From a virus, in the IMG/VR virus record IMGVR_UViG_3300045988_023617: a stretch of 18,844 bases of DNA; one strand, written 5' to 3'. Shown here one piece after another: positions 1-18,844 of this stretch; positions within the stretch are counted from its first letter, which is position 1, and each line of letters opens with the position of its first letter. The notes beneath the pieces are model-generated. The model was given only the letters and a program-made list of their open reading frames with translations. It ran no database searches and was not told the DNA's origin. A program made the position numbers and the translations under genes.

Positions 1-216
1 GGAGGGGAGGGGCCCCAGCCACTAGCCTTTTTCCACAACCGCTCTGTTATGTGTTTGTGTTTTCTTTTGCGTTGTGTGTTCTTGCTTGTATTGTTGGTGG
101 TTGTGGTTGTGGTGGGGTTTTTTTGTGTTGTTTTTTTGTGTGTTTTGGGTGTGTTGTTTTTGGTGTGTGGTATGATGTGAGTATCAACCGATAGGGAAAG
201 GAAAAAAATAAAATGA
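1..216. repeat. Left inverted terminal repeat (216 bp), perfect reverse complement of 18629..18844
   Basis: I compared the two ends base by base. They are identical from position 1 through 216 and diverge at 217 (a on the left, t in the right-end complement). The repeat reaches the very first and last base of the window, as expected for true ends of a protein-primed linear genome. Confidence 0.97.
168..176 (+). promoter_or_regulatory. Extended -10 promoter (TGGTATGAT) inside the left ITR, firing inward
   Basis: TGn + TATGAT at 168-176, directly after the G/T tract and about 37 nt upstream of the ATG at 213. It is the same motif class as the TGnTATAAT boxes at other gene junctions. No clear -35. 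Confidence 0.5.
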
Positions 217-377
217 ACACCGTTGTTTCGTTTGATTGGTGGAGCAAGTCCATTACAGTGGCATTCGTTGATTACAATACCGTGCACTATTTCGATGGGC
301 AACGCTATTACCGTCAAGGGCGCAAAGAGTCGTATGCGCCGCGAACTGTGCATGGCAACGGGCGTGGAATTGTCTAA
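213..377 (+). CDS. Left terminal early protein, 54 aa, unknown function; start codon lies inside the ITR
   Basis: Too short for the >=60-aa ORF track. ATG at 213-215 follows GGAAAGGA (196-203). Translation is MNTVVSFDWWSKSITVAFVDYNTVHYFDGQRYYRQGRKESYAPRTVHGNGRGIV, with TAA at 375-377. The mirror ATG at the right end opens a clear 85-aa ORF, which supports use of this initiation site. Confidence 0.5.
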   Translation: MNTVVSFDWWSKSITVAFVDYNTVHYFDGQRYYRQGRKESYAPRTVHGNGRGIV

Positions 378-437
378 TTTGAAGTATTGGCGGACGGACG
401 GTTCCGTTGATTACTATCGTGCGGATAGGGAGGGTGA

Positions 438-671
438 ATGATTGTGAGAGAGCATATGTATATCGTAGCTAGTTGGCCTTGTGTTGACTATGTCCAAGTG
501 GCAACTCCGACTCGTAATTACTATGTAGTCCATGCCGCAGACTCTTATGAGGCTTTGCGTAGGATTCTTCAGCTTGAGGGAGTTATACTTTACGCTCATG
601 TTAAGCGGCTCACGTCCTGCCGTAACGTTGGGGCCGGATATGTGGCTTATTATTATAGTGTGGTGTATTGA
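438..671 (+). CDS. Hypothetical early protein, 77 aa
   Basis: ORF-track entry. ATG is preceded by AGGGAGGG (427-434). No recognisable motif. Confidence 0.4.
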   Translation: MIVREHMYIVASWPCVDYVQVATPTRNYYVVHAADSYEALRRILQLEGVILYAHVKRLTSCRNVGAGYVAYYYSVVY

Positions 672-672
672 T

Positions 673-741
673 ATGTTTTCTTCGGTTCTTGTTATTTGCG
701 TATGCATCCTTGGTATTGTTGCCGTTTTTGGTATTATGTGA
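673..741 (+). CDS. Possible 22-aa hydrophobic micropeptide (MFSSVLVICVCILGIVAVFGIM)
   Basis: ATG at 673 lies 1 nt after the TGA of the preceding ORF. The whole product is about the length of one transmembrane helix. This is the in-frame tail of track ORF 532..741. No SD of its own, so translation would have to be coupled. Confidence 0.2.
   Translation: MFSSVLVICVCILGIVAVFGIM
729..737 (+). promoter_or_regulatory. Candidate extended -10 box (TGGTATTAT)
   Basis: TGn + TATTAT, 25 nt upstream of the ATG at 762 and just before its GGAAAGGA SD. Confidence 0.3.
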
Positions 742-761
742 TTGGAAAGGATAATTAAAAA

Positions 762-1007
762 ATGTCTTATGGTGACATTCGTGTCGGGAGGTTCAACAGC
801 TCTCATATGGGGGGTGACGTGCGTATCGAATACTGCACACACCAACATCTTTTTTATCTGACATATAACGTGGAGTTCCATACGCCAGTCGGCTTGACTG
901 AGGGCGTCGCGCGGTGCGGTTATGACCCTACGAAAGCCAATGAAATGCGTTCTATGGTGTTGGATGCTATGGATATTGCGGCCAAACCACTGGAGGATAG
1001 GGATTAG
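762..1007 (+). CDS. Hypothetical early protein, 81 aa
   Basis: ORF-track entry. SD-like GGAAAGGA (744-751) has the same sequence and similar spacing as the sites in the ITR and before the SSB gene. Confidence 0.5.
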   Translation: MSYGDIRVGRFNSSHMGGDVRIEYCTHQHLFYLTYNVEFHTPVGLTEGVARCGYDPTKANEMRSMVLDAMDIAAKPLEDRD

Positions 1008-2105: not shown

Positions 2106-2543
2106 ATGGCTGACAACGAACTGACCGTAACGAACGGCAACAATTTTTCTGCGAACGGCACTAACGCCGTATCCCACTTTTTCGATACTTCTACGATGGA
2201 CGGTAAGATGGCGCTGTACAACGCCATGCAGACCGCCGATAAGGTAGATGAACACCTTAACGAGCCGTTGCATGTCACTAACGTGCTGGCGCAGGCTATT
2301 GAAGTCGCCAATCAGGAGACTGGCGAAATCAATTCGTCCACCCGCGTAGTCATTCACGCGGAGGAAGGTGATTTCGCCGCCGCCTCCCCTACGCTGGCGC
2401 ACGCATTCGGCAATCTGTTCGCCATTTTCGGTACGCCGGACACGTGGAATCAGCCACTTGCCCTCAAGGTGGTGGAAAAGAAGAGCCGCCGTGGCTACAA
2501 GTTCTTTGACCTCGAATTGGTGTCGGAAAGCAAGCGTAAGTAA
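2106..2543 (+). CDS. phi29 p5-like single-stranded DNA-binding protein
   Basis: 145 aa. FFDTSTMDGKMALYNA resembles phi29 p5 FDTETLEGQIKIFNA. TRVVIHAEEGDFAAAS resembles VTTIFAADGSLYSAIS. LALKVVEKKSRRGYKFFDLEL resembles FKVKVVQGTSSKGNVFFSLQL. SD-like GGAAAGG lies 8 nt upstream. Confidence 0.7.
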   Translation: MADNELTVTNGNNFSANGTNAVSHFFDTSTMDGKMALYNAMQTADKVDEHLNEPLHVTNVLAQAIEVANQETGEINSSTRVVIHAEEGDFAAASPTLAHAFGNLFAIFGTPDTWNQPLALKVVEKKSRRGYKFFDLELVSESKRK

Positions 2544-2571: not shown

Positions 2572-2597
2572 GGCAACGTCCCTATAGGGATGTTGCC
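2572..2597 (+). promoter_or_regulatory. 26-bp near-perfect palindrome GGCAACGTCCCTA/TAGGGATGTTGCC
   Basis: The 13-nt arms are complementary except for one G-T position. It lies in the SSB-TP intergenic region, 6 nt downstream of a TATGAT hexamer (2561-2566). It could be an RNA hairpin or a dimeric protein-binding site. Confidence 0.45.
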
Positions 2598-2605
2598 GCC
2601 AGACT

Positions 2606-2647
2606 CACCCCCCGCCGTTTCCATCCTTGCGGCGAGGGGTGTTTCAT
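2606..2647 (+). terminator. GC-rich hairpin with short T run (possible attenuator or weak intrinsic terminator)
   Basis: CACCCCCCGCCG (2606-2617) pairs with CGGCGAGGGGTG (2630-2641) at 11 of 12 positions, with a 12-nt loop, followed by TTTCAT. It lies just upstream of the G-rich SD of the TP gene. Confidence 0.35.
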
Positions 2648-2664
2648 ACTCACAGGGGGGAACC

Positions 2665-3609
2665 GTGGCAAAACGCAAAAACCGCCGACGCGCTGACAAT
2701 CTGAAACGCAACGCCGCAATCAGGTCGGCACAGGTACGTCGGGAACGAGCAGTCAGAGATTACAGTACCGGACGTCTCCCCAAGCGAATCACCGAAACGT
2801 TCTTGGGGAATCTTAGTGCCCAACAGCTTGAGCAGGTCGCGCGACGCATTGGGCAGGAGTTCGGAGAACAACAGCAAGCCTTAAGGGCGCGGGATAATGA
2901 GACGTATCAGGTTGTTCCAGACGTTCGCGTCACGAAACTTGACCGTGAGATGGCCGCGCGTCCGCTGATTACCGATGCGGAAATCGCCGCCGCCCCGTCG
3001 AAACGTCGGAAAACATTGCGGCAGCAGCAGCGACGACGGGTCGAGGCACGGCAGAAAATCAAGCGTGCCCAACAATTCGAGGCGCTGGGCATGGCCCGCT
3101 ATACCGTGGGTGAAATGCGTGAGATGGAACGTGCGGGTGAATCTCCGTTTGATGTGCTGGGCACTCACACGGTTGGCGGTTCGGCACGTGACGAACTTAT
3201 GCGAAGCCGTGCGAATGTGTTCGGCTCAGAGCGTGGTATAAGTCATGCGCGTGTGATGATGCGAGAGGGAGACCGTAGGAAGCTTGAGCGAGAAGTGCTT
3301 GAATACGCCGGACTTGTAGGACGTGCGCCGTTGCGTGCGGGAACTAGGCGTATTCCTGAAAACGAAGGCGTTTCGGATTTTGATAAGGTCGCGCAACAGC
3401 TCGAAGCATTCGACTCTAGTGTCGCCCAAAGATTCGCTTCTTTGTCGAACCGACAAAAACGATGGCTGATAAACAACACGAATTTCAGCACCGTAGTACG
3501 CGAGGCAACGTGGTATAATGATAAGGCGCATAAATGGGAAACTAAATCGGACGCGGAGGATGTAGAGACACGACTTGATGAATGGATAACCAGCGCAGCA
3601 AGACACTAA
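2665..3609 (+). CDS. Putative terminal protein (replication primer)
   Basis: Track ORF 2590..3609, but its first 25 codons run through the two intergenic hairpins. GTG 2665 follows GGGGGGA (2655-2661) and gives 314 aa. The protein is highly basic at the N-terminus (KRKNRRRADNLKRN). It lies immediately upstream of the protein-primed polymerase, as in phi29-like phages. No direct sequence motif was recognised, so the call rests on position and composition. Confidence 0.55.
   Translation: MAKRKNRRRADNLKRNAAIRSAQVRRERAVRDYSTGRLPKRITETFLGNLSAQQLEQVARRIGQEFGEQQQALRARDNETYQVVPDVRVTKLDREMAARPLITDAEIAAAPSKRRKTLRQQQRRRVEARQKIKRAQQFEALGMARYTVGEMREMERAGESPFDVLGTHTVGGSARDELMRSRANVFGSERGISHARVMMREGDRRKLEREVLEYAGLVGRAPLRAGTRRIPENEGVSDFDKVAQQLEAFDSSVAQRFASLSNRQKRWLINNTNFSTVVREATWYNDKAHKWETKSDAEDVETRLDEWITSAARH
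3511..3519 (+). promoter_or_regulatory. Candidate extended -10 box (TGGTATAAT) inside the 3' end of the TP gene
   Basis: Perfect TGnTATAAT 106 nt upstream of the polymerase ATG. Being internal to a CDS, it is less certain than the boxes at gene junctions. Confidence 0.3.
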
Positions 3610-3624
3610 AAAAAGGATGGAATT

Positions 3625-5085
3625 ATGCGAGAGCGTCGAACGGCGGCAACAGACGGCGCAACATTATTGACGGATGACGGTATAACGCCATTGACGGCGA
3701 ACGCCGTCGTTCGCCTTACGATGCTTGACCATCATACGCGCGTATGGTGCGCACATGGATGGCAGGATATCAAGCTAATAGCGGCCGAGCTGTTGAGACG
3801 CCTCCCCCTGCAATCGAATCCGGCCAAGGATGGAGTTTATGGCACTTTTAATATTCGCGGCCACTTCTACAGTTTCCGCGTGCGCATGGGCGGTATCACC
3901 GTGGATTTTCTGGACGTGCGCAATGTCACACGCGACGACGGGCTGAATGTCTCACGTGAAACGTTTGGCGGTGCGGATGACTTGGAAACCACGTGGAACA
4001 TCGCGCAGGAATGCGACGCCCTGAGGCTCAAGGGCACGACCATAGCGTCTATGGCGATGGGCGATTATATCGGGGGAGATTACGCCGGATTCAAACAGCA
4101 CTTTCCGCCATTGGATAAAGCGGAATATCATCGGATGCGCCCCGCATACTATGGGGCGATAGTGTACAGCAGGCCGGGGGAATATCGGGATTGCAAGAGC
4201 TGGGACGTGAACAGCCTCTACCCGAGCGTCATGCGCGACTTTGCCATGCCCGTAGGCGCGCCGATATGGTATGAAGGAAAATATCATGATGATGCTGATT
4301 ATCCGCTGCATATCGATGTTATCTCGTTCGATGCTCGATTGAAGCCGGGGAAAACGGCTACGCTCACGAATATCCTACCCGTATGGGGGTACGAGGGCGA
4401 ACGTATGGACAGCACGTTAGGCGTCGTCACCATGCCAGTGGTCGACGTGGATTGGCAGACCTTGACGGAAAACTATGATGTCCATGCATGGGATTATATA
4501 GGCGGCTGGAAATTCCGTAAATCGCATGGACTCTATTACAACTACGTTGACAAATGGTTCCACGTGAAACAAACCGCAACCGGAGAGCGTCGGCAGATGG
4601 CGAAACTATTGCTTAATTCGTTGGTGGGGAAATTCGGAGCATCGCTTTATCGGCCTATGCTGCACCCGAAACCCTCTGGCGATGGCGGCGTGGATTTTAC
4701 CGTGGATAAACCCGAGTCAACCAACTCACTCGCATGGCTACCCACCGCCGCCTATGTCAACGCCTACGGGAGGCAAATACTGTCACGCGCGATGAATGCG
4801 AACGCCGACCGCGTGCTTTACGCCGATACGGACGGCATGATACTGGACGGACTGGATGCGCCCGCAGATATCGAAATGGACGATAAGAAACTGGGCGCGT
4901 GGAAAAACGACCACACCTATGAAAAACTCCGCATCCTCGGCAATCGCAAATACTGCGGCGCAGAGGAAGACGGCGGCACGGTGATGCGGTTGAGTGGCGT
5001 GCATCGAGCTGCCCCTATCCCCTACGACGACTTTTTGCCGAGGTCACGCCATGTCAACGATGACGGCTGTTTTTTTGTGCTATAA
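3625..5085 (+). CDS. Protein-primed family-B DNA polymerase (phi29 p2-like), compact 486 aa
   Basis: WDVNSLYPSVM (motif A, nt 4201-4233). MPVGAPIWYEGKYHDDADYPLHI matches phi29 LPYGEPIVFEGKYVWDEDYPLHI. AKLLLNSLVGKF (motif B, from about nt 4600). YADTDG (motif C, nt 4819-4836). KKLGAWKNDHTYEKLRILGNRKY (KxY). SD AAGGA lies upstream of the ATG. Confidence 0.95.
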   Translation: MRERRTAATDGATLLTDDGITPLTANAVVRLTMLDHHTRVWCAHGWQDIKLIAAELLRRLPLQSNPAKDGVYGTFNIRGHFYSFRVRMGGITVDFLDVRNVTRDDGLNVSRETFGGADDLETTWNIAQECDALRLKGTTIASMAMGDYIGGDYAGFKQHFPPLDKAEYHRMRPAYYGAIVYSRPGEYRDCKSWDVNSLYPSVMRDFAMPVGAPIWYEGKYHDDADYPLHIDVISFDARLKPGKTATLTNILPVWGYEGERMDSTLGVVTMPVVDVDWQTLTENYDVHAWDYIGGWKFRKSHGLYYNYVDKWFHVKQTATGERRQMAKLLLNSLVGKFGASLYRPMLHPKPSGDGGVDFTVDKPESTNSLAWLPTAAYVNAYGRQILSRAMNANADRVLYADTDGMILDGLDAPADIEMDDKKLGAWKNDHTYEKLRILGNRKYCGAEEDGGTVMRLSGVHRAAPIPYDDFLPRSRHVNDDGCFFVL

Positions 5086-5639: not shown

Positions 5640-7370
5640 ATGGCAACTACGCCAGTGGTGACGCCGAAGCAGCAATTGCGCCCGCTCACCGAATTCAATA
5701 ACGCTCAGATTCTCAACATGATTCGTAACGAGGCTTCGCCGGAATACCAGCGGCGAATGCCCTCGGCCACTCAGATGAACATGGACCGCCAGATGGCTAC
5801 GCTTATGTCTTCCACCCAGCTGAAGAACGAGTTTTATTCGGCGCTGGTGAACCGTATCGGCGGCACCTACGTGAACACATGGCGTTGGAATAATCCTCTC
5901 AGCGTTTTCCAGCGGGCATCGCAGGCGTATGGCGACACGTGGCAGGAAATCGCCGTGGGAATGCCGCTCGCGCAGGTCTATGACCCTGATGCGGAATATC
6001 TCGGCGCGGATAACTTCCGCAAGTGGAAAATCGACGTGGATTCGCTCTATCATCGTCTGGACTTTGCTCACTGGTATCCTGCGACCACGGATGATAAGAC
6101 GCTTCAGCGTGCTTTCACTTCCGAAAACGGTCTGGCCTCGCTCACTTCTCAGATTCTCACATCCTGCTACAATGCGGCTGAGGTTGACTTGTTCGAGGCT
6201 CTGTGCCACCAATTCGTCGAATACGCGAAACTCGGCGGCTATTGGCGTGTCCACATGGACAATGACCTGAACAACATGGGTAGTTCGGAAACGGACGCTC
6301 GCGACATGCTACGCCAGATTCGCGCATGGGCGGACACGCTTAAATTCGTTTCCACCAAGTACAACGCCCGTCACATGCCGACCTTCGCCCGCCCGGACGA
6401 ACTCGTGCTGTTCTGTTCCCCGGAAGTCAAGTCGGCGCTTGACGTGCAGGGCCTCGCCACGGTATTCCAGCGTACCGACGCCGAGCCGACCATCGACCGG
6501 ATTATCGTTATCCCTCAGGACAGGTTCGGCATGGATGGCGTACAGGCCATCCTAACGACCGACAAGTTTCTGATTGACATTCCGGTCATTAACGAAATGA
6601 CTCAGCAGACTAATCCGGTCAACATCAATTCGGTGAACCATTATCTGCATGTCCAACACATCATCTCGGTGTCCGGCTTCGCTCCGGCTGTCATGTTCTG
6701 GACGGGTGCCGGTTCCACCGCGAACGTGGTGACCCCTACCGGCACGCAGGCCGAAGCGCCGAAGTTCCAGCTCAAGCTTGCCATGTATGGCGGCGGTTCG
6801 GAAACTCCGAGCGATGTGGCGCGTGGCGGCGCGGTGCAGGTTACTGCCGACACGACTATCGCTAATGACGGTACCGCCACGTTCCGCTCGGATGCGGTCG
6901 AGTATCGTATCGGTGACACCGCCAAGCCGAAGAGCGATTACACGTATGTCTCGCCTACTGGCGTGCTTGTGGTCGGACTTGACGAACCGAACACCACCAT
7001 CCCGATCACCGCAACCGCATTGTACACGAATCCGGCGACGCCGGAAGTGCCGGGAACCGTGTCCGCGGCTCTGGACGTGCCAGTGGTCGGTGACGGTGTT
7101 ATCGGATTCAATCCGTCCATCATCGCATCCATTGCCGTGACCGTCCCGAACATGATCGTAGGACATACGGCGCAGGCGACTGCCGTGGCGACCATGATTG
7201 ACGGACGCACCGCCGACGTGACCGCACAGGCCGCTTGGACGTCCGGCACTCCGGCGAACGCCACCGTGTCCGAGTCCGGCGTGGTGACTGGCGTCAAGGC
7301 GGGCAGCTCTGACATCGCCGCCACGCTGTTCGGCGTGTCCGGCAAGAAGAGTGTGACCGTGACCGCGTGA
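5640..7370 (+). CDS. Major capsid protein (phi29 gp8-like) with C-terminal Ig-like (Big_2-type) domain
   Basis: [20 protein letters not shown] resembles gp8 [32 protein letters not shown] resembles NDFITSLVDRIG. NNPLSVF resembles [20 protein letters not shown] resembles IYNSAEVDEYEYM. The C-terminus ([68 protein letters not shown]) is a typical Big_2 pattern, and a second beta-rich segment precedes it. Strong SD GGAAGGAAGGA. Confidence 0.92.
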   Translation: [576 protein letters not shown]

Positions 7371-7422: not shown

Positions 7423-7463
7423 CAAGGCCCGGAGCGCAATCCACGTGATTGCTCCGGGCCTTG
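7423..7463 (+). promoter_or_regulatory. Strong hairpin between capsid and tail-knob genes (attenuator or RNA-stability element)
   Basis: CAAGGCCCGGAGC (7423-7435) pairs perfectly with GCTCCGGGCCTTG (7451-7463), 13 bp, plus an inner AATC/GATT stem. The apex contains CACGTG. No T run follows. A smaller hairpin GTAGCC-GGTT-GGCTAC lies at 7383-7398. Confidence 0.5.
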
Positions 7464-7481
7464 CCATACCGGAGGACAATA

Positions 7482-9809
7482 ATGATTGACGACGCGAACC
7501 CTTACGTAGAATCTAATTTTTCTTGGGCGGAATGGACACCGAACACGACACTGAAACTCTGCCGAGTGCCGTGGGATGCTTCATACCGTGATATCGTGCG
7601 GTTTGTTTCACGTGAAACGCAGCGAGAATGGTTCGACAAACTGGACGGCGTGGAATGCCGTCCGGCCACTATGCATATTTTCAACGCGCCCGCCCGCGTC
7701 GAACTGCCGTTTAACGAAGCATCGAACTGGAATTATCTTGTAGCCTATAACGACTACCCCGAATTGGAGGGGCCTCGCGCGTGGTATTACTTCATTCAGC
7801 GCGTCGAATACGTCAACGCCCATTGCACGCAATTGGTCTTGATGCTGGACGTGTGGCAGAGTTTCCAGCACGACGTCACATTCGGTAGCTGCTATGTGAC
7901 GCGCGGTCATATCGGCGTCGCCAACGAACGCCAGTGGAATGACTATGGGCGCACATATCTGGCGCTCCCGGAGGGCTTGGATACCGGAAGTGAAATGGTC
8001 ACAACGTCACAGGAATATCAGAGCATTATCGAAGGACGGCATTATGACATAGATGGCGGTGCCGTCGATTGGGTCGATTACGGTTTGATTGTGGTCAGCA
8101 CCACTAATCTCACCGACGACCCCGGCAGCACGTCCGAACCAAAGCTTACCACCGCAACCGGGGCCATCTTCGAGCAGGAGACGGACGGCTGTTCTGTCTA
8201 CTATTGTGAAAACCGAATGGCGTATGTCGCCAACATCATGGCCCTTGGCACGCTGTTCCCGTGGATAACGCAAGGTATTTGCGCCGTCTACATGGTGCCG
8301 AAAATTCCACAGGATTACGTGAGCCGATATGGGCATAGGGTTACGGAGATTTACGGGCAGCCAGTGTCAGAGGAATACGGCAACATTTATTCTTTTAATT
8401 CCTCTCTCGATTCGGACTTACGCTACGAGGATGTTATGTCCGTTGCGAACTTTCGCAATAAATTCAACATCCCCGCCCGATACCGGAATCTGCGCAAGCT
8501 CTATTGTTATCCGTTCTGCGTTATAGAATGCAGCTGTCTGAACGGCACGGTCATTACTTATCGACCTGAAGATATTCAATCCGATACGCTCACTGTCCGT
8601 GAAACCTACACTTACGCGCCGTCCGGTGCAAGAATCAATTTCTACATTCCCGGCTACAATGAGGCTGGAGCGACTACTACGGTCCCGCTGCGTATCGACG
8701 GCAAAGACATGGGGCTACCGATAGACGGCGGCGAAATGCTCAACGCAAGTTTCGGTATCACCAATTTGCCTCACTTTTCAGTGGTCAACAATGGTGGCGC
8801 GCTGGCTATGGCGAACAGCGCGTACACCCGCGCCTACGCGCAGGAGTCAGCCCAATGGACCAGGCAAAAGGCTTTAACTTCGGCTAACGTGGTCAACTCC
8901 AATGCCGCATTACAGCGCGAATACGCCACACGGCAAACCAATTGGGCAAACGAGAATCGGACGGCAACCAACGCCATCACTGCAAACTCGCTAAACCAGT
9001 CCCTTGCCATCGGACAGAATCAGACCAGCCAGATGGCTAATCTCCAAGTGGAGCAAAATATCAAGAGCAACAATCTCAACGGTATGGCCGGTATCATCGG
9101 GGGGGGACTGAACGCCGTCGCATCCCGCAGTCCATTGGGTGCGGTGAACGCGGTTGGCGGCGCGTTCCTCGGCTCCGCACATACGGACATCGCCAATTAC
9201 GGCATCAATTCGTCTGCCGCTGTCTCCAATTCCACGGCGGCGGCGAATACGGCGAATCAGATTGCCACCAATGCGGCGGCCACGTCGCAGGCCAACGCCT
9301 ACGCAAGCGGAGCGACCGCACTGGGCAACCAGCTGAACGCCGTCGTGTCGCAGGCGAATTACGGACTGGCCTCATATGCGGCTCAAGGTGATTACCAAAA
9401 CGCCATCGCCGGAATTAACGCTCAGGTGCAGCAGATGCAACTGACTCCGCCAACCACTTCGGGAGCGCTCGGCGGTGACATGTTCAACTTAAGCAACGGA
9501 ATTATGGGCGTGTTGGTGCGGTTCAAAACGTGTGCGCCGAGCGCGTTGAGGGCGGCAGGTGAATACATGCTACGCTATGGGTATTTTGTCCAGCGATTCG
9601 TCACCCCTCCCGCCTCACTGGAATGCATGGAGAAATTCACGTTCTGGCAGATGCAGGAGGCGTATGTGCGGGGCACGCTGCCTGAAGAATACCGACTGAC
9701 AATCAAAGGTATGTTTGAACGTGGTGTGACGGTTTGGGACAAGCCCGAGTATATCGGCGTGACTGACTGGGCTGACAATGAGCCACTTCCGGGCATTGGT
9801 TACGAGTGA
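7482..9809 (+). CDS. Tail knob / distal tube protein (phi29 gp9-like)
   Basis: The track ORF begins at TTG 7449, inside the hairpin. ATG 7482 has GGAGGA 5 nt upstream and gives 775 aa. [28 protein letters not shown] resembles gp9 [41 protein letters not shown] resembles [25 protein letters not shown] resembles [23 protein letters not shown]...GVTVWD resembles KYGYKINR...GITLWH. Confidence 0.88.
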   Translation: [775 protein letters not shown]

Positions 9810-9815
9810 TATAAT
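9807..9815 (+). promoter_or_regulatory. Extended -10 promoter (TGATATAAT) overlapping the tail-knob stop; 6 nt upstream of the portal ATG
   Basis: The TGA stop (9807-9809) is the TGn of a perfect TGnTATAAT. The hexamer ends at 9815 and the portal ATG starts at 9822. No SD lies between them. Confidence 0.55.
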
Positions 9816-9821
9816 GGCAGT

Positions 9822-10772
9822 ATGAGTAGGTCTAAAAAGAATCGAGTTGGCGGCGCGTTGCACCCACGTGGCAATTACGCGAAAACACGCGCCGTCACGC
9901 TTGATGACATGTATCTTCATTTGCTGATGGAACTCGCACTGAACCGTTTCAGCTGGCGCGGATTACCGCCCACTGTAGACGAACGTTGGCTGGAAATATG
10001 TCTGTGCGAATACGGATGCGCGTTGTTTTTCGAGGATAAGCGTATCGGCAGGTTCCTTGTGACTCAGGCAGGTTATCAAGGCAGATTGAACGTGTATAAT
10101 AATCCGACATGTTTCGAGCCGGTAGGCGTCAACTACCACTACAAGCAGCTCAAGGCCGGTTCGGAATGCATCCCTATCTGGGATAATCGAATGCGCGTCG
10201 GATTCAAGCCGACGTTATGGCAGTACGCGCGGCGCCTCGCCGACATTGACAAGGCGTATGACGTGAATCTGGAGAGTCTGAAGCTGCCGACCATCATCAC
10301 TGCCGACCCTCGCACCAAGCTCACCGTGCAGAACATGCTTCAACAACGGCAGGACGGTCAGGATTATATTATCGGATACGATTCGCTTGACCCCGGCAGC
10401 TCGTTCCAGCCGTGGCCGAACACAACGCCTTATCTGTTGGACAAGTTCGTCCAGCAAAAAGCGCAAGTGACTAATGAGGTGTTGGGATATCTCGGCATTC
10501 AATCGTCCGGCACGGAGAAAAAGGAACGGCTTATTTCCGATGAGGTGGCGCAAGCCAATGAGAAAGTAGACGTGTTCCGCTTGAGTTTCCTCAAGGCGCG
10601 GCAGACTGCGGCGACTGAGATTAACCGATTGTGGCCGCAACTGAACGTGTGGGTGGAGTATGCGGACGCGCAAAGCTCCGGCGTGCCCAACGCGCTTGAT
10701 TCAAGCGCAGGCGGCACTACGGACATCGATATGCCCGCATCGTACGACGCGGGTATCGGAGGGGTATTATGA
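9822..10772 (+). CDS. Portal / upper collar connector protein (phi29 gp10-like)
   Basis: 316 aa. LALNRFSWRGLPPTV resembles gp10 LAYQLFEWENLPPTI. GTEKKERLISDEV resembles NLEKKERMVTDEV. Basic N-terminus, as in gp10. No SD is present, so this is a candidate leaderless gene. Confidence 0.9.
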   Translation: MSRSKKNRVGGALHPRGNYAKTRAVTLDDMYLHLLMELALNRFSWRGLPPTVDERWLEICLCEYGCALFFEDKRIGRFLVTQAGYQGRLNVYNNPTCFEPVGVNYHYKQLKAGSECIPIWDNRMRVGFKPTLWQYARRLADIDKAYDVNLESLKLPTIITADPRTKLTVQNMLQQRQDGQDYIIGYDSLDPGSSFQPWPNTTPYLLDKFVQQKAQVTNEVLGYLGIQSSGTEKKERLISDEVAQANEKVDVFRLSFLKARQTAATEINRLWPQLNVWVEYADAQSSGVPNALDSSAGGTTDIDMPASYDAGIGGVL

Positions 10773-11566
10773 TGACGCAGGATTTTACCGCCTATGCTAT
10801 GGAGACTCCCGGCGAGTACACTGAAACTCTCGGCAATCTCATTGCATTCGGATACGACACGGCTGACAAGCTGCATCTGTCCGCCGACTACTATCCGATT
10901 TACCGAGAAGAACATCGTGCGGAATTGAACGAGAAAATCGTTCGCCATTACGCATTAAGGGAAATTGGGCAGGAAACCGCGCAGCAATTCGTTTTCTACT
11001 TGGGAACGACGATGGCGGAAATCATGCCCTATTTCAACGAGCGTTACCGGACGCTGGACATGCAATACAATCCGTTGGACTCTATGGATATGACGACGGA
11101 CAGCGAGAGCGGCAGCGAATCCCAGTCGTCCGGCAAAGCGTCCAGTACGCAGGACTCGACCAGCTCTAGCACATCCAAGTCAGACAATTCCAGCACTACC
11201 ACGTCAAAGAGTTTTGATAGCGACGTGCCGCAAACCGGTGTTGTAGGCGACTTCGCCCGCTACGCCTCCCATGCGAACGAATCGCAGGCGGACAGTTCCG
11301 GTACCGCGTCCAGTTCGCAGGATTCGACCAGTCACACCACGGCGCAAAGCGCAACCGACTACCAACACGATTCGAGCAACGCAAAGGGCAAGAGTCATGT
11401 GACCGGGCGCAGTCAGAGCGCCATGAGTCTGATTCAGGAATACCGGAACGCCATCATCAACGTGGATATGGAAATCGTACGCAGCCTCGAACCGTGTTTC
11501 ATGCAGATATGGGGTTCGTATGATACAATATTCGGCAACTGCCATAACTATGGAGAATGGGAGTAA
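10769..11566 (+). CDS. Lower collar protein (phi29 gp11-like) with long Ser/Thr-rich central segment
   Basis: 265 aa. ATGATG overlaps the portal stop (ATGA coupling), and GGAGGGG lies upstream. It sits directly after the portal. An N-terminal helical region (REIGQETAQQFVFYLGTTMAEIMPYFNERY) is followed by an S/T/D/Q-rich stretch and a conserved-looking C-terminus (LIQEYRNAIINVDMEI). Confidence 0.7.
   Translation: MMTQDFTAYAMETPGEYTETLGNLIAFGYDTADKLHLSADYYPIYREEHRAELNEKIVRHYALREIGQETAQQFVFYLGTTMAEIMPYFNERYRTLDMQYNPLDSMDMTTDSESGSESQSSGKASSTQDSTSSSTSKSDNSSTTTSKSFDSDVPQTGVVGDFARYASHANESQADSSGTASSSQDSTSHTTAQSATDYQHDSSNAKGKSHVTGRSQSAMSLIQEYRNAIINVDMEIVRSLEPCFMQIWGSYDTIFGNCHNYGEWE
11521..11529 (+). 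promoter_or_regulatory. Candidate extended -10 box (TGATACAAT) upstream of the appendage genes
   Basis: TGn + TACAAT, 40 nt upstream of ATG 11569, inside the 3' end of the lower-collar gene. Confidence 0.3.
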
Positions 11567-14660: not shown

Positions 14661-14676
14661 TGGACTATTTTAAGCG

Positions 14677-14709
14677 ATAGCCATGCTGCTATAATAGCAG
14701 CATGGCTAT
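14677..14709 (+). promoter_or_regulatory. Perfect 33-nt palindrome containing an extended -10 box (TGCTATAAT, 14687-14695) and the ATG of the tail-lysin gene
   Basis: ATAGCCATGCTGCTAT-A-ATAGCAGCATGGCTAT has 16-nt arms with no mismatch. TATAAT (14690-14695) straddles the centre. ATG 14702 is in the 3' arm, exactly 6 nt after the hexamer. TACTTTTG follows the palindrome. Confidence 0.6.
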
Positions 14710-15940
14710 TACTTTTGATGATTGGGTTAAGCAGACACAAGACCGATATTGGGATATGGATGGCGCATACGGTGCGCAGTGCTGGGACCTATGGGCCAAG
14801 TATAGTATGGACATGTATGGTCTGAGCGTTCAAGACTGCATCACCCCCACCGGCTATGCCGAGGGATGCTATACGAGGTTCCCCTACACCGCCGCACTCG
14901 GCAACGTGTATGAGAAAATGGACTCCAATTATACGCCAGTTAAGGGTGACGTGGTTTTTTGGACATTCGGCGGTCAAATCTACACTGGCTCCCATGTCGC
15001 AATCGTATGGGGTGGCGTCACTGGCGATAATATCGATGTTCTAACACAAAATCCCACTCCGGCAGTTCATCAAACCTTGCCACTCTTGCGCGGTTCGCAG
15101 CTGCTCGGCTACCTGCATCCCAAGAACTTGCAGCCGGGCGGCACGACGCCGGATAATCCGAACGGCGGCAATCCCACGGGTGGGGATAATCAAGGTTCGG
15201 GCGTGTCTGGCGGTTCGTCCGCATGGATACAGCAACAGGGCGATAATTTGATATACCATTACGGCTCGCGTAGTGGCGGCATGTCGGCGTTGTTCGTCAA
15301 GACTACCGCGCAGAATTGGATATATCGCGGCGCGTCCGGCACGGGTGCGCCGGATGGAGACGGCGGGCAATCGTCGCCCAGTGTAGGCGACGGCGAGTCA
15401 AGTTATGCGCTTTATGTGGTGGGCACGGTTGAATCATCATTGCGATGGGATGCGGTAGAGCCTAATCGCCAAGGCATCGGCATTGCGCAATGGAGTTTCG
15501 GCCGCCGCCTGCAAGTACTGAACGCGATGAAGACGGTTGACGCTGATGGATACCGGACGTTCGCCGCCGCCGCGCCGGACATTGTCGCGCTTATGGACTC
15601 GGGCGGCACGTTTGACAGGGCAATGACCGGTAGTGAGGTTGCTGCGTTCCAGACGTGGGCACGTCGTCCTCAGTCTCATGCGGGTCAACGCGCTCAGTTC
15701 GCTACGGATTACGAGGGCTATCCGCAAAAATACGACGACGCGAAGATGCAAATACTGTGGACTTGCGCATATCATCAATCTCCCGCAGGTGCGTTGAACG
15801 TGCCGACCGCGACCACGCTTGCGGGGTTGCGTGACAACATTCTAGCCACATCCCCGTTCGGACCATATGGCACGCGATATCAGGCCGCCTATAGCTTGCT
15901 GAACGTCTGGGATGGGAAGAGTGCGCCGCCAAACTTTTAA
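14702..15940 (+). CDS. Tail-associated peptidoglycan hydrolase: N-terminal CHAP endopeptidase/amidase + C-terminal phi29 gp13-type lysozyme-like domain
   Basis: 412 aa. CHAP signature: DMDGAYGAQCWDL (Cys27), GSHVAIVWGG (His98), VLTQNP (Asn117). A Gly/Asn/Pro linker covers aa ~145-175. C-terminal VVGTVESSLRWDAVEPNRQGIGIAQWS resembles gp13 GNMQSESTINPGLW...GFGLVQWT, with a putative catalytic Glu in GTVES. It occupies the phi29 gene 13 position, after the appendage gene. Confidence 0.8.
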   Translation: MAITFDDWVKQTQDRYWDMDGAYGAQCWDLWAKYSMDMYGLSVQDCITPTGYAEGCYTRFPYTAALGNVYEKMDSNYTPVKGDVVFWTFGGQIYTGSHVAIVWGGVTGDNIDVLTQNPTPAVHQTLPLLRGSQLLGYLHPKNLQPGGTTPDNPNGGNPTGGDNQGSGVSGGSSAWIQQQGDNLIYHYGSRSGGMSALFVKTTAQNWIYRGASGTGAPDGDGGQSSPSVGDGESSYALYVVGTVESSLRWDAVEPNRQGIGIAQWSFGRRLQVLNAMKTVDADGYRTFAAAAPDIVALMDSGGTFDRAMTGSEVAAFQTWARRPQSHAGQRAQFATDYEGYPQKYDDAKMQILWTCAYHQSPAGALNVPTATTLAGLRDNILATSPFGPYGTRYQAAYSLLNVWDGKSAPPNF

Positions 15941-15946
15941 CAAGTG

Positions 15947-15955
15947 TGCTATACT
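15947..15955 (+). promoter_or_regulatory. Extended -10 promoter (TGCTATACT), 6 nt upstream of the ATPase ATG
   Basis: TGn + TATACT ends at 15955 and the ATG is at 15962. There is no SD before either ATG 15962 or the track's GTG 15944. Confidence 0.5.
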
Positions 15956-15961
15956 GGACAC

Positions 15962-17065
15962 ATGGGTGACATTAACGTGCTTAATGAGAATGATTATTAT
16001 GACTATGGTAGAGCATTGTCTTATCATAGTCCTTGGATGTTCGTAATCGGAGCACGTGGCCTCGGGAAAACCTATGGCGCTAAAAAATTGGTTATCGGTG
16101 ATTGGATTAAGAAACGCTGGCAATTCATTTATCTACGCCGGACAGCAGAGGAACAGAAGAATAAGGGCACATGGTTTGCAGACGTCGCGGAGCAATACCC
16201 GGAACTGGAATTTAGAGTGTCCGGGAATCAGGCCGAATGTCACTGGCTGGATGACAGGGACGCAACCGCAGACAAGCATGGCAAGAGCCGTGCGACATGG
16301 CATGTCATGGGGTATTTTATCGCCCTATCGCAAGCTGGACAGGTGAAATCGGTTGCCTACCCTAAAGTACGAACTATTATCTTCGACGAAATATTCCCCG
16401 ACAATATGCGCTATCTCGGCGGAGAAGTTACGGCGCTTGAGGAATTTTACAACACGGTTGACCGTTGGAACGATAGGGTTCGCGTTATCATGTGCAGCAA
16501 CGCCGTAACGTTGGCTAACCCGTATTTCAGCGCGTTTAATATCAACCTAAAACCGCAGTTGGATAATCACACACAATATCAGCGATATTGTGACGGGTTC
16601 ATCATGGTGGAATTGGCCGATTACGGCGGATTCAGTGCCAAGGTTGCCACATCTAAATTCGGACAGTTTTTACGCAGGTATGACGAAAATTATGCGAATT
16701 ATGCAATCAATAATAATTTTAGAGATAATGCCAATGCTCTCATTAGTGATTTTAATAACGCCGGTTATGCGTTCACATTAAGAACCACTGAATACGGCGT
16801 TTTCAACGTTTATCAACAACTAAGCGATACCGATGAAGTATTGTATCTCATCACAAAAAAACAACCTAAAATCACAAGGGATTTTACATTTGACTATCGA
16901 CTGGTCGATAACGATTGTATGATGCTCAAACGTTCGGACGACATGACCCAGAAAATATTAAACGCCTATCGCGTCGGTAGATTACGGTTCGAGACTCCGC
17001 AAATTAAGGCGGAATTCAGTATGATTCTTGGCGGCTTGTTGCAACAATCAGGCATAAGAAAGTGA
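15962..17065 (+). CDS. DNA encapsidation (packaging) ATPase, phi29 gp16-like
   Basis: The track ORF starts at GTG 15944; ATG 15962 gives 367 aa. LSYHSPWMFVIGARGLGKTYGAKK resembles gp16 LSYDRILNFVIGARGIGKSYAMK (Walker A). QFIYLRRT resembles QFIYVRRY. TIIFDEIF resembles TIVFDEFI (Walker B). RVIMCSNAVTLANPYF resembles RCICLSNAVSVVNPYF. RVGRLRFE resembles MNGYLRFD. Confidence 0.93.
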   Translation: MGDINVLNENDYYDYGRALSYHSPWMFVIGARGLGKTYGAKKLVIGDWIKKRWQFIYLRRTAEEQKNKGTWFADVAEQYPELEFRVSGNQAECHWLDDRDATADKHGKSRATWHVMGYFIALSQAGQVKSVAYPKVRTIIFDEIFPDNMRYLGGEVTALEEFYNTVDRWNDRVRVIMCSNAVTLANPYFSAFNINLKPQLDNHTQYQRYCDGFIMVELADYGGFSAKVATSKFGQFLRRYDENYANYAINNNFRDNANALISDFNNAGYAFTLRTTEYGVFNVYQQLSDTDEVLYLITKKQPKITRDFTFDYRLVDNDCMMLKRSDDMTQKILNAYRVGRLRFETPQIKAEFSMILGGLLQQSGIRK

Positions 17066-17073
17066 GGATAATA

Positions 17074-17436
17074 ATGACGCAAGCAAACATATGGTGTACC
17101 ATTGCAGTCATATTTTTTATTAGCATCGACTACGTTACTGGCGTGGTAAAAGCAATCATGCGTGATAATCTGAGTTCGCGAAAGATGCGGGAGGGACTAG
17201 GGCACAAGTTCGCCTATCTTATGCTTGTGCTGGTGGCATGGTTCATCGACGAAGTGAACCGGCATATCAATTTAGGACTGCCAATGTCCGTATTTGTCTG
17301 CACGGTCGGCGGAGTATGTCTAATCGAACTCACGTCAATCCTCGAAAACGTCACCGAAATCAATCCCGAATTAAAAAACGCGCCATTCATGCAGATTTTC
17401 GCTCAATCCACAAATGACAAGCATAAGGCGGAATGA
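17074..17436 (+). CDS. Holin (phage_holin_4 / TcdE-like family), ~3 TM segments
   Basis: The track ORF starts at GTG 17062. ATG 17074 has GAGGA 5 nt upstream and gives 120 aa. ISIDYVTGVVKAIMRDNLSSRKMREGLGHKFAYLMLVLVA is the characteristic family pattern. Hydrophobic segments lie at aa ~6-25, 50-65 and 75-97. It sits directly upstream of the endolysin and overlaps it. Confidence 0.75.
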   Translation: MTQANIWCTIAVIFFISIDYVTGVVKAIMRDNLSSRKMREGLGHKFAYLMLVLVAWFIDEVNRHINLGLPMSVFVCTVGGVCLIELTSILENVTEINPELKNAPFMQIFAQSTNDKHKAE

Positions 17437-18320
17437 TGGACGGCATAATATGGATAGGCTCGCCAAACCATTACAATGGACGCAATGGATACGCCGTGAC
17501 ACACATAACGCTGCATATCATGGTCGGCCATCTCGCCGGAACGGATAGCGTATTTTTGAGCGCCAATTCGCAGGCAAGTGCGCACTATGGTATCGGCGCG
17601 GACGGTGCAATTCATCAATACGTGAGCGAAAACGACGGCAGCTACAGTGACGCCAATTTCACGTCAAACAATTCGACAATCAGCATAGAACACGAAGGGG
17701 GTATGAACGGAATACCTTGTACGCAAGCGTGCATGAACGCTTCCGCTCGACTCTGTGCCGACATAGCACGCCGATATGGTTGGACGCACCTGCGGCACGA
17801 TGGACTCAACGGCAACATATGGTTACACCGCGAAGTGCCGGGCACCGACCATTACGGCTGTCCCGACCTAGCGCCAAACGGACTCGACATAAATTATGTT
17901 ATCAACAAAGCAAATCAAATTCTAGAAGGAGCCGACGAAATGGCATTGACCGACGAAGATATTATGAGATTCTGGACACACAAACTCCCAAACGGACGCG
18001 CAGCACGCGACATTATCAGCGACGCAACCAGCGACGTAATCCGAATGCACGACACGGGACTTGTCGGCGGACAATGGATGCACAAACTTCCAAACGGCCG
18101 ATACGCCCGCGATATTGTAAGCGACGCAACCAGCGACGTAATCCGTATCCACGACACCATGCTACCAGCATTAACCGCACAAGTAACGGCGCTCACGGCA
18201 GCAGTAAAAGCATTATCCGAGTCGATAGGCGCCAATCCCGACACCATTGCCAAGACCGTGCAGGACGCGGTAAAAGCAAAACTGGACAGTCTGAAAATCA
18301 CCGTAACAGACGAACAGTAG
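17433..18320 (+). CDS. Endolysin: N-acetylmuramoyl-L-alanine amidase (Amidase_2/PGRP fold) with repeat-containing C-terminal region
   Basis: 295 aa. ATGATG overlaps the holin stop. Motifs: HITLHIMVG, SAHYGIGADGAIHQYV, TISIEHEG, and LHREVPGTDHYGCPD (a Zn-ligand His/Cys pattern like T7 lysozyme). The C-terminus carries two 34-aa repeats plus an Ala/Leu/Lys-rich helical tail. Confidence 0.85.
   Translation: MMDGIIWIGSPNHYNGRNGYAVTHITLHIMVGHLAGTDSVFLSANSQASAHYGIGADGAIHQYVSENDGSYSDANFTSNNSTISIEHEGGMNGIPCTQACMNASARLCADIARRYGWTHLRHDGLNGNIWLHREVPGTDHYGCPDLAPNGLDINYVINKANQILEGADEMALTDEDIMRFWTHKLPNGRAARDIISDATSDVIRMHDTGLVGGQWMHKLPNGRYARDIVSDATSDVIRIHDTMLPALTAQVTALTAAVKALSESIGANPDTIAKTVQDAVKAKLDSLKITVTDEQ
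17979..18159 (+). repeat. Tandem ~78-bp direct repeat with 102-bp period inside the endolysin gene (two 34-aa protein repeats)
   Basis: HKLPNGRAARDIISDATSDVIRMHDT and HKLPNGRYARDIVSDATSDVIRIHDT. The copies start at 17979 and 18081 and share an identical block, agcgacgcaaccagcgacgtaatccg. Confidence 0.85.
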
Positions 18321-18331
18321 CGCGACATAAG

Positions 18332-18370
18332 AAAGCCCCCTAGGTTATTGCCTAGGGGCTTTACTTTTTA
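18332..18370. terminator. Bidirectional intrinsic terminator between the convergent endolysin and right-terminal genes
   Basis: AAAGCCCCCTAGG (18332-18344) pairs with CCTAGGGGCTTT (18351-18362): 12 bp with one bulged C and loop TTATTG. It is followed by ACTTTTTA on the + strand. On the - strand, the stem's terminal A-T pairs and the flanking sequence give TTTCTTAT. Confidence 0.8.
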
Positions 18371-18374
18371 TACG

Positions 18375-18632
18375 TCAATCGCCGTTGTCAACCGAGACAA
18401 CATACGTACGGCACGGGCGACCCTTCTTAGACAAACACCGCCTGGTTTCAACGTAATCATAATCGTAGCTCAAAGAAAGTTCGATAACCGCTGCAAGAGC
18501 GGACTCGAACGTAATAACACTATCATCAAAACGACCATTATCACGAACGGGAGTCTTGAGCACGCCTTCAATACAAACTTCGTACCAATTGTCCTCTTCA
18601 AGTTCGATAACATAAGCGTTAAAATTAATCAT
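18375..18632 (-). CDS. Right terminal early protein, 85 aa, acidic, unknown function; start codon lies inside the ITR
   Basis: The only credible minus-strand gene. The ATG (complement of 18630-18632) and its SD are ITR sequence. It ends 5 nt before the bidirectional terminator region. Confidence 0.65.
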   Translation of the reverse strand: MINFNAYVIELEEDNWYEVCIEGVLKTPVRDNGRFDDSVITFESALAAVIELSLSYDYDYVETRRCLSKKGRPCRTYVVSVDNGD

Positions 18633-18844
18633 TTTATTTTTTTCCTTTCCCTATCGGTTGATACTCACATCATACCACACACCAAAAACAACACACCCAA
18701 AACACACAAAAAAACAACACAAAAAAACCCCACCACAACCACAACCACCAACAATACAAGCAAGAACACACAACGCAAAAGAAAACACAAACACATAACA
18801 GAGCGGTTGTGGAAAAAGGCTAGTGGCTGGGGCCCCTCCCCTCC
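18629..18844. repeat. Right inverted terminal repeat (216 bp)
   Basis: Exact reverse complement of 1..216. It contains the mirror copies of the extended -10 box, the SD-like GGAAAGG and the ATG that opens ORF 18375..18632 (-). Confidence 0.97.
18669..18677 (-). promoter_or_regulatory. Extended -10 promoter (TGGTATGAT on the minus strand) inside the right ITR, firing inward
   Basis: Mirror copy of 168-176, with the same distance to the ATG of the right terminal gene. Confidence 0.5.

Follow-up and report, generated by a model that had tools for sequence, protein, structure and literature searches.

The genome described here, IMG/VR record IMGVR_UViG_3300045988_023617, is a stretch of 18,844 nucleotides (nt), called the window throughout, and the elements under study are the inverted terminal repeats (ITRs) at its two ends together with the small genes that start in them. 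The window is the linear, nearly complete genome of a phi29-like podophage from a human gut metagenome, kin to Bifidobacterium phages, and it most likely replicates by protein priming. Linear genomes of this kind measure about 15-25 kb and carry inverted terminal repeats, a description that the window fits with its length and with its perfect repeat of 216 nt. Nearly all of its long open reading frames (ORFs) lie on the + strand. Each arm of the repeat contains, reading inward, an extended -10 element, a leader, a Shine-Dalgarno sequence (SD) and an ATG, and we consider it probable, from the sequence comparisons set out below, that these form one expression cassette serving two different inward-facing genes, one at each end (Table 1).

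Relatives for these comparisons were found by tblastn with the capsid protein and, in IMG/VR, through the connector protein. At least 80 close relatives are in IMG/VR, with connectors 92-99% identical to that of the window; like the window itself, nearly all of them are metagenome assemblies. Megablast of the whole window against GenBank phages gave no match, and thus no near-identical phage. Judged by the capsid protein, Bifidobacterium podophages come closest among named phages, with 36-42% identity.

The repeat was delimited with a repeat finder and by direct reading. Its arms are 100% complementary and both end in ...GGGAAAGGAAAAAAATAAAATGA (in the direct reading, ...TGGTATGATGTGAGTATCAACCGATAGGGAAAGGAAAAAAATAAAATGA); beyond this point the left end continues with ACACCG and the right end, as its reverse complement, with TTAATT. 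A first-pass annotation of the sequence had described the repeat as running through a promoter, an SD and ATGA before diverging, and both approaches bear this out at the same coordinates. The window has exactly two copies of a 35-nt part of the cassette, and none of 200 shuffled sequences contained any match to it. Those relatives that reach the physical end of the genome begin with AAAA(A)GGAGGGGAGGGGCCCC (AAAA(A)GGAGGGGAGGGG in the comparison of left repeats), so the window lacks the outermost four or five A residues, beyond positions 1 and 18844. Such reiterated terminal A would be expected for initiation by sliding back. Upstream of the promoter element, G and T make up 94% of the top strand between positions 41 and 170, a tract which may be an origin or a region bound by a DNA-binding protein.

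Within each arm the -10 element is followed by a leader of roughly 30 nt, with an A-rich spacer between SD and ATG; transcription is predicted to start near 181-184 at the left end and near 18661-18664 at the right end. A hidden Markov model (HMM) of the cassette, built from the region around the -10 and run against the contigs of the relatives, had no match farther than about 900 nt from a contig end, and all matches point inward. The window and 38 relatives have the cassette at each of their two ends; in seven relatives one end has it twice, and each copy precedes an ORF of its own. Across 68 distinct copies the conserved columns are the TG at -8/-7 and, within the hexamer, T, A and T (-5 to -3) and the last T. 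A further conserved stretch is TATC (+6 to +9, counted from the -10), where transcription would be expected to start: both T residues are found in 68 of the 68 copies, the C in 65 and the A in 54. Whichever gene follows, about 18-44 nt separate the -10 from the called start codon. The promoter call is based on this conservation and on the statistics of extended -10 elements, as a generic sigma-70 scan requires a -35: TGNTAWRAT has seven matches in the window where 2.06 are expected, and TGNTATNAT has 13 where 2.2 are expected, mostly on the coding strand and at gene junctions. A third copy of the same design, shortened, lies within the left early region. No hairpin was called inside the ITR, and the only terminator nearby is a separate hairpin behind the right gene. 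The proposal of the first-pass annotation that two unrelated proteins share one initiation cassette is thus supported by comparison, as the left gene belongs to one family (F6) and the right gene to another (F1) and the cassette recurs in the 38 relatives and in the isolate BP1.

The right terminal gene is intact and encodes an acidic protein (16 D/E against 9 K/R). By tblastn it was found at 31 loci with 35-100% identity, all of them inward-facing at a right end and aligned from the first residue. Pairwise ratios of non-synonymous to synonymous substitution rates (dN/dS) of 0.13-0.30 indicate that the family is under purifying selection. A large protein database contains 154 homologues, the longer contigs among them measuring 15-19 kb, and none of the 154 has a Pfam domain. 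The AlphaFold model consists of three strands, a helix and two strands, with a mean predicted local distance difference test (pLDDT) of 89.8; it found no significant match in the PDB (best E 0.3, template modelling score (TM) < 0.36) and in BFVD matched only its own family. Between this gene and the convergent amidase gene, the end of the late operon, lies a hairpin with a perfect 9-bp stem and flanking T-runs on both strands. The right end thus has, to judge from its sequence, the look of an independent unit with a promoter, gene and terminator of its own. By analogy with the right-end early genes of phi29, a role in DNA entry is plausible for the right gene; the earlier suggestion of immediate expression from the end that goes in first is speculation.

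At the left end, the ORF of 54 amino acids that the first-pass annotation took for an intact gene turned out to be a frameshifted allele of a gene for 76. Relatives L009, L013, L014, L024 and L029 encode one continuous protein of 76 amino acids, MNTVVSFDWW...GVELSNLKYWRTDGSVDYY...GE. The T-run at 290-292 reads TTT in the window and TTTTT in five relatives, and because of this 2-nt deletion the window gene leaves the family frame after about codon 27. Its displaced C-terminal part is read in the same frame as ORF 223..441, and the stop codon of this ORF overlaps the next ATG, that of the following gene (ATGA at 438-441). Pairwise dN/dS among relatives is 0.11-0.38, which points to purifying selection on the left family as well. 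The identical 54-residue product is recorded on five contigs, from one sample or more, so the deletion is not the artefact of a single assembler. Programmed frameshifting was considered and rejected: the relatives have one continuous ORF with T5 against T3 in the window, and the run is too short for slippage.

Table 1. Features of the window, with the terminal elements first; positions refer to the 18,844-nt stretch.
Feature	Position	Strand	Basis or remark
Left inverted terminal repeat	1..216	+	Repeat finder, 216 nt, 100%
Right inverted terminal repeat	18629..18844	-	Repeat finder and direct reading
G+T-rich tract 5' of promoter (T76 G46 C6 A2)	41..170	+	Mirror 18675-18804
Extended -10 element TGGTATGAT, no recognisable -35	168..176	+	Motif statistics; conservation in 68 distinct copies
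Extended -10 element TGGTATGAT, reading inward	18669..18677	-	Motif statistics
TATC motif, +6 to +9 after -10	182..185	+	Conservation in 68 copies
Shine-Dalgarno sequence GGAAAGGA, 10 nt 5' of ATG	195..202	+	Mirror copy 18643-18650
Start codons ATG	213-215 and 18630-18632		Direct reading
Left terminal ORF, 54 amino acids	213..377	+	First ~27 codons as in the conserved 76-residue family, rest out of frame
Displaced C-terminal part of left gene	295..441	+	Frame of ORF 223..441; conserved in relatives
Right terminal gene, 85 amino acids, intact, acidic	18375..18632	-	Stop codon 18375-18377
Bidirectional intrinsic terminator hairpin	18337..18358		Amidase stop ends at 18320; right gene stop 18375-18377
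Shortened internal cassette copy	729..764	+	TGGTATTAT 729-737, GGAAAGGA 744-751, A-rich spacer, ATG 762 of ORF 762..1007
phi29-type single-stranded DNA-binding protein (SSB)	2106-2543		Pfam/PHROGs
DNA_pol_B_2 polymerase	3625-5085	+	Pfam, PHROGs
phi29-type major capsid protein	5640-7370		Pfam/PHROGs
Tail knob protein	7449-9809		Pfam/PHROGs
Connector	9822-10772		Pfam/PHROGs
Lower collar	10769-11566		phrog_5472
GDPD-domain tail protein; CHAP/lysozyme protein (ORF 14702)			Pfam/PHROGs
gp16 packaging ATPase	15944-17065		Podovirus_Gp16
Amidase	17433-18320		Pfam/PHROGs

The remaining gene content is that of a phi29-like phage. The polymerase is of family B and of the protein-primed type (PF03175 DNA_pol_B_2, E 1.1e-33; phrog_1907, E 2e-54), and further Pfam and PHROGs matches include Phi29_MCP (4.5e-86), Phage_connector (4.4e-42), phi29_gp9_C (3.3e-11), Podovirus_Gp16 (3.7e-42) and the lower collar family phrog_5472. 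Directly 5' of the polymerase gene, an ORF of 339 amino acids (2590-3609), 29% identical to a syntenic ORF of phage BD811P3, is by its position a putative terminal protein. Pfam and PHROGs gave no family for the product of either terminal gene, nor for most of the small early ORFs. Phi29-like phages normally have a packaging RNA; no Rfam family reached its gathering score anywhere in the window, a weak negative because these RNAs diverge fast.

Some observations were made in passing. Extended -10 boxes TGATATAAT (9807-9824) and TGCTATAAT (14687-14704) lie 6 nt 5' of the ATGs of the connector and CHAP/lysozyme genes, a distance that implies leaderless mRNAs; leaderless mRNAs are a habit of Actinobacteria, and these two sites fit an actinobacterial host. 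The second box is the centre of an inverted repeat of 21 nt (14672-14714, 90% complementary, 1-nt gap) before ORF 14702, which may be an operator. Finally, Illumina/Nextera adapter sequence was seen at the contig ends of L011, L027, L030, L041 and L067 in IMG/VR, as well as within the left end of the deposited BP1 genome (L084 in our set, GenBank PQ571273, at about 225-290), and these stretches are contamination of public records.

To see where the two arms part, both ends of 39 genomes were anchored on the -10 and the end of identity was recorded, the counts being uncorrected for shared descent. The boundary falls anywhere from 0 to 333 nt after the -10. It lies 0-3 nt after this element in five of the 39 genomes (L010, L050, L060, L067, L074), within the leader or the SD in 18 (e.g., L004, L009, L011, L012), at the start codon or up to about three codons beyond in about seven (the window and L076 at +4, L021 and L024 at +8, L064 at 0), and farther in, including the whole first gene, in nine (e.g., L001, L037, L029, L027, L008). 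The repeat of L001, L037, L029 and L027 takes in all of the first gene, which is hence present at both ends, and the boundary is 0-9 nt from the stop codon of this gene; in L002 the boundary is at the start of the next gene. That the boundary falls inside a codon had seemed unusual at the first pass. The repeat does not always end just after the ATG, however: in 32 of the 39 genomes it ends elsewhere, and against this variation its place in the window is incidental. In part, then, relatives do have boundaries unrelated to the ORF starts, a result that the first pass had named as speaking against its reading: the boundaries range from the -10 to the end of a gene, and they tend toward gene borders, without a fixed position. 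The shared fourth base, the A after the ATG, is a one-in-four coincidence, and many genes of the group begin with ATGA.. (ATGATT, ATGAAC, ATGACT). In L021 and L024, whose repeat extends through the third codon, the right gene begins with MNT like the left gene, against MIN or MIT in most relatives, and this looks like a conversion across the start codon. Terminal repeats of 55, 99, 119 or 141 nt in related contigs equal assembler k-mer lengths. We rejected the view that they are meaningless artefacts and kept them in the boundary table, because a unitig runs one k-mer into the repeat and such overhangs still mark the true point of divergence.

The principle of the arrangement is not new. It is less unusual than the first-pass annotation suggested: the records of the Streptococcus phage Cp-1 (NC_001825, used here through its feature table) and of the Actinomyces phage Av-1 (NC_009643) annotate inward promoters at the inner edge of both repeats. 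Cp-1, a podophage, also has a linear protein-primed genome, in which almost all genes point rightward and a few at the right end point inward. Its exact annotated repeat measures 236 nt, its ends are about 95% identical to about nt 352, and two TTGACA-17-TATAAT promoters stand at mirrored positions (mapped starts PE1/PE2 at the left, PE5/PE4 at the right, the only mapped starts among the records compared) in front of different first genes, which start at nt 376 and 375 from their respective ends. In Cp-1, similarity stops at the transcription start, leaving leader, SD and start codon specific to each end behind a canonical -35/-10, whereas in the window the repeat continues through leader, SD and ATG and the extended -10 has no -35. 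Av-1 has annotated -35/-10 elements at mirrored positions (206-211 from each end) reading inward into different small genes; its imperfect repeat of about 210 nt, exact for only 52 nt, ends within the -35, so that -10, leader and SD are specific to each end. The window resembles both phages in having mirrored inward promoter elements in the two repeats and different first genes behind them.

Closer parallels exist among the cultured isolates. The perfect repeat of BadAztec1 (259 nt) ends with ATGA, and both annotated terminal coding sequences start at nt 256; that of BadAargau2 (227 nt) ends after the SD, 1-3 nt before both ATGs. These two have the layout of the window in a different sequence. 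BP1, with a capsid protein 37% identical, has the window-type cassette at both ends and a second, inner copy (three HMM matches). All three share genome plan and host clade with the window, the capsid proteins being only 36-42% identical. The terminal genes compared from BD811P3, BP1 and BadAztec1 are unrelated to the window right gene, and the comparison indicates that isolates do possess the architecture and that it recurs in combination with other cargo. The GenBank records of BD811P3 and BadAztec4 have no terminal repeats (trimmed or permuted) and were left out of the repeat comparison; the Arthrobacter phage Mendel has a 16-nt repeat and a layout unlike that of the window. A search of the literature in one library found no description of a shared cassette in Bifidobacterium podophages.

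An inward promoter within a terminal repeat is also known from the protein-capped, linear S plasmids of maize mitochondria, where it drives orf355/orf77 as well when the repeat recombines beside them (PMC3152571). The S plasmids differ from the window in belonging to a eukaryotic organelle with its own RNA polymerase, in the distance of about 127 bp from repeat to coding sequence and in a repeat that holds no translation signals.

What lies behind the cassette changes quickly. Among genomes whose connectors are 92-99% identical, the first ORFs cluster into 21 families. The family of the window right gene, F1, is at the right end in 19 of 19 cases and that of the left gene, F6, at the left end in six of seven, whereas F2, a protein of 66 amino acids, was found seven times at the left and seven times at the right, these cases including both ends of L001, L037 and L008. 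Stacked units of cassette and gene are seen on one end in L008, L031, L041, L053, L060, L067 and L075 (right or both ends), and in BP1 at 18927-18987. The spread of the families and the stacking fit recombination at the cassette and copying between ends, a mechanism we infer from the mosaic junctions. The closest analogue of a promoter motif that marks gene-shuffling junctions is given by the PeSLs of T4-type phages, mobile regulatory cassettes treated in PMC2839356 and PMC4122927: a short conserved early-promoter motif flanks small, highly variable genes and marks junctions where close relatives differ by insertion, deletion or replacement. The window and its relatives likewise have a conserved promoter motif bounding variable small genes, with the 21 families and with boundaries near start and stop codons. 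PeSLs differ in being internal, in combining promoter and stem-loop terminator and in not being tied to genome ends or replication; the stem-loop joined to the promoter, by which PeSLs are defined, is missing from the cassette described here.

These findings can be assembled into the following scenario. Each repeat would be at once a replication end and a complete expression cassette, and host RNA polymerase would start inward transcription at each end from the same promoter. From the left, transcription would cover an early operon of small ORFs, SSB, putative terminal protein and DNA polymerase; from the right, the single 85-residue gene as far as the bidirectional terminator. The arms would stay identical by concerted evolution of the termini, through copying or recombination from end to end, as for the repeats of adenovirus. 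Adenovirus too has a linear, protein-primed genome. Its repeats remain identical because one end is repaired from the other, and transcription-factor sites within them serve the E1A and E4 units that adjoin the two ends; adenovirus differs from the window in its eukaryotic host and in having core promoters and start codons outside the repeat. The inner edge of identity would then be the place where the last homogenising event ended and where selection tolerated it, here one base past the ATG, and the cassette would be a junction at which unrelated small terminal genes are exchanged between genomes and between ends.

This last point can be carried further. The cassette may be the recombination module of a fast-evolving platform of accessory genes at both genome ends, a proposal that we put forward tentatively. 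Homogenisation of the repeats during protein-primed replication, together with ectopic recombination between cassettes, would copy, swap and stack small early genes, and terminal genes would be exchanged between the two ends and between co-infecting phages; the genes exchanged are possibly ones for host takeover or anti-defence. Such a module would explain the 21 families, the families found at either end, the whole genes inside the repeat, the stacked units and the rewritten N-termini. We regard the cassette as a shuffling junction for terminal genes as the more interesting lead.

Other explanations have to be weighed against the shared cassette, beginning with those that accept the repeat as real and read it differently. 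The boundary just past the ATG might itself be a selected design for delivering promoter, SD and first codon to two genes. Its recurrence as ATGA in the window, in L076 and in the distantly related isolate BadAztec1, and its position 0-9 nt after the first base of the start codon in about seven of the 39 genomes, speak for such a design. We nevertheless find it unlikely: in the 32 others the boundary comes just after the -10, falls within leader or SD, lies some way into the first gene or coincides with the end of a whole duplicated gene, it precedes the ATGs by 1-3 nt in BadAargau2 and falls at the transcription start in Cp-1 and at the -35 in Av-1, and the cassette appears to retain its function at both ends of genomes whose identity stops earlier. 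That ATGA recurs is accounted for by the many genes of the group with this start. Alternatively, the terminal element could be mainly a site for replication origin, packaging or a DNA-binding protein, its resemblance to promoter and SD being incidental and the genes being expressed otherwise. The element does sit in the repeat of a presumed protein-primed genome, the home of origin functions, it is without a -35, and its most conserved columns (TATC) are outside the -10 hexamer. Yet second copies occur on the same end, 200-450 nt farther in, in seven relatives and in BP1, each at a fixed distance 5' of another ORF, where an origin role is unlikely, and the shortened copy of the window precedes ORF 762. 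The same motif is seen in the TGnTATAAT sites of other gene junctions, its spacing to the start codon holds at roughly 18-44 nt whatever gene comes next, and the mapped transcription starts of Cp-1 are at the equivalent place. Taken with these facts, a mainly non-transcriptional element appears quite improbable.

The repeat or its boundary might also be an artefact of assembly, such as an inverted duplication that the assembler appended to the ends of the contig. The window does come from a metagenome assembly, and some related contigs carry adapter sequence or k-mer-length terminal repeats, the latter still marking the true divergence point, as explained above. An artefact is very improbable all the same: dozens of independently assembled relatives have full-length repeats from the same terminal sequence, the cultured isolates share the repeat architecture, the two ends run into different conserved genes, and a separate ENA contig from the human gut metagenome run ERR209764 reproduces positions 102-662 of the window exactly.

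The shared cassette, which we prefer, has its own difficulties, and the following points weigh against it. The 100% identity of the arms is not independent evidence, as metagenome assemblies collapse repeats longer than the k-mer; the point where the two arms turn unrelated is real despite this collapse. The generic sigma-70 scan did not call the repeat promoter, since no -35 is present, and the activity of the cassette in this phage and its close relatives is predicted from comparison. In the window, the left cassette would yield at best a truncated product ahead of the remaining operon. The 339-residue ORF has no Pfam or PHROG match and no BLASTP similarity to the annotated terminal protein of Av-1, and the homogenising mechanism is carried over by analogy from adenovirus.

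Together, these comparisons provide a testable map of the early transcription units of Bifidobacterium-type podophages, which are common in the human gut and unstudied. In the lineage of the window the terminal repeat would combine replication and expression roles, start codon included, and annotation pipelines should expect first genes that start inside the repeat. For phage engineering, the cassette would mark natural insertion points for payload genes at either end. The series of boundaries, at the -35 in Av-1, at the transcription start in Cp-1, at the SD in BadAargau2, at the ATG in BadAztec1 and the window and after a whole gene in others, may serve as a natural system for studying how the repeats of protein-primed genomes are homogenised and how this process shuffles their early genes.

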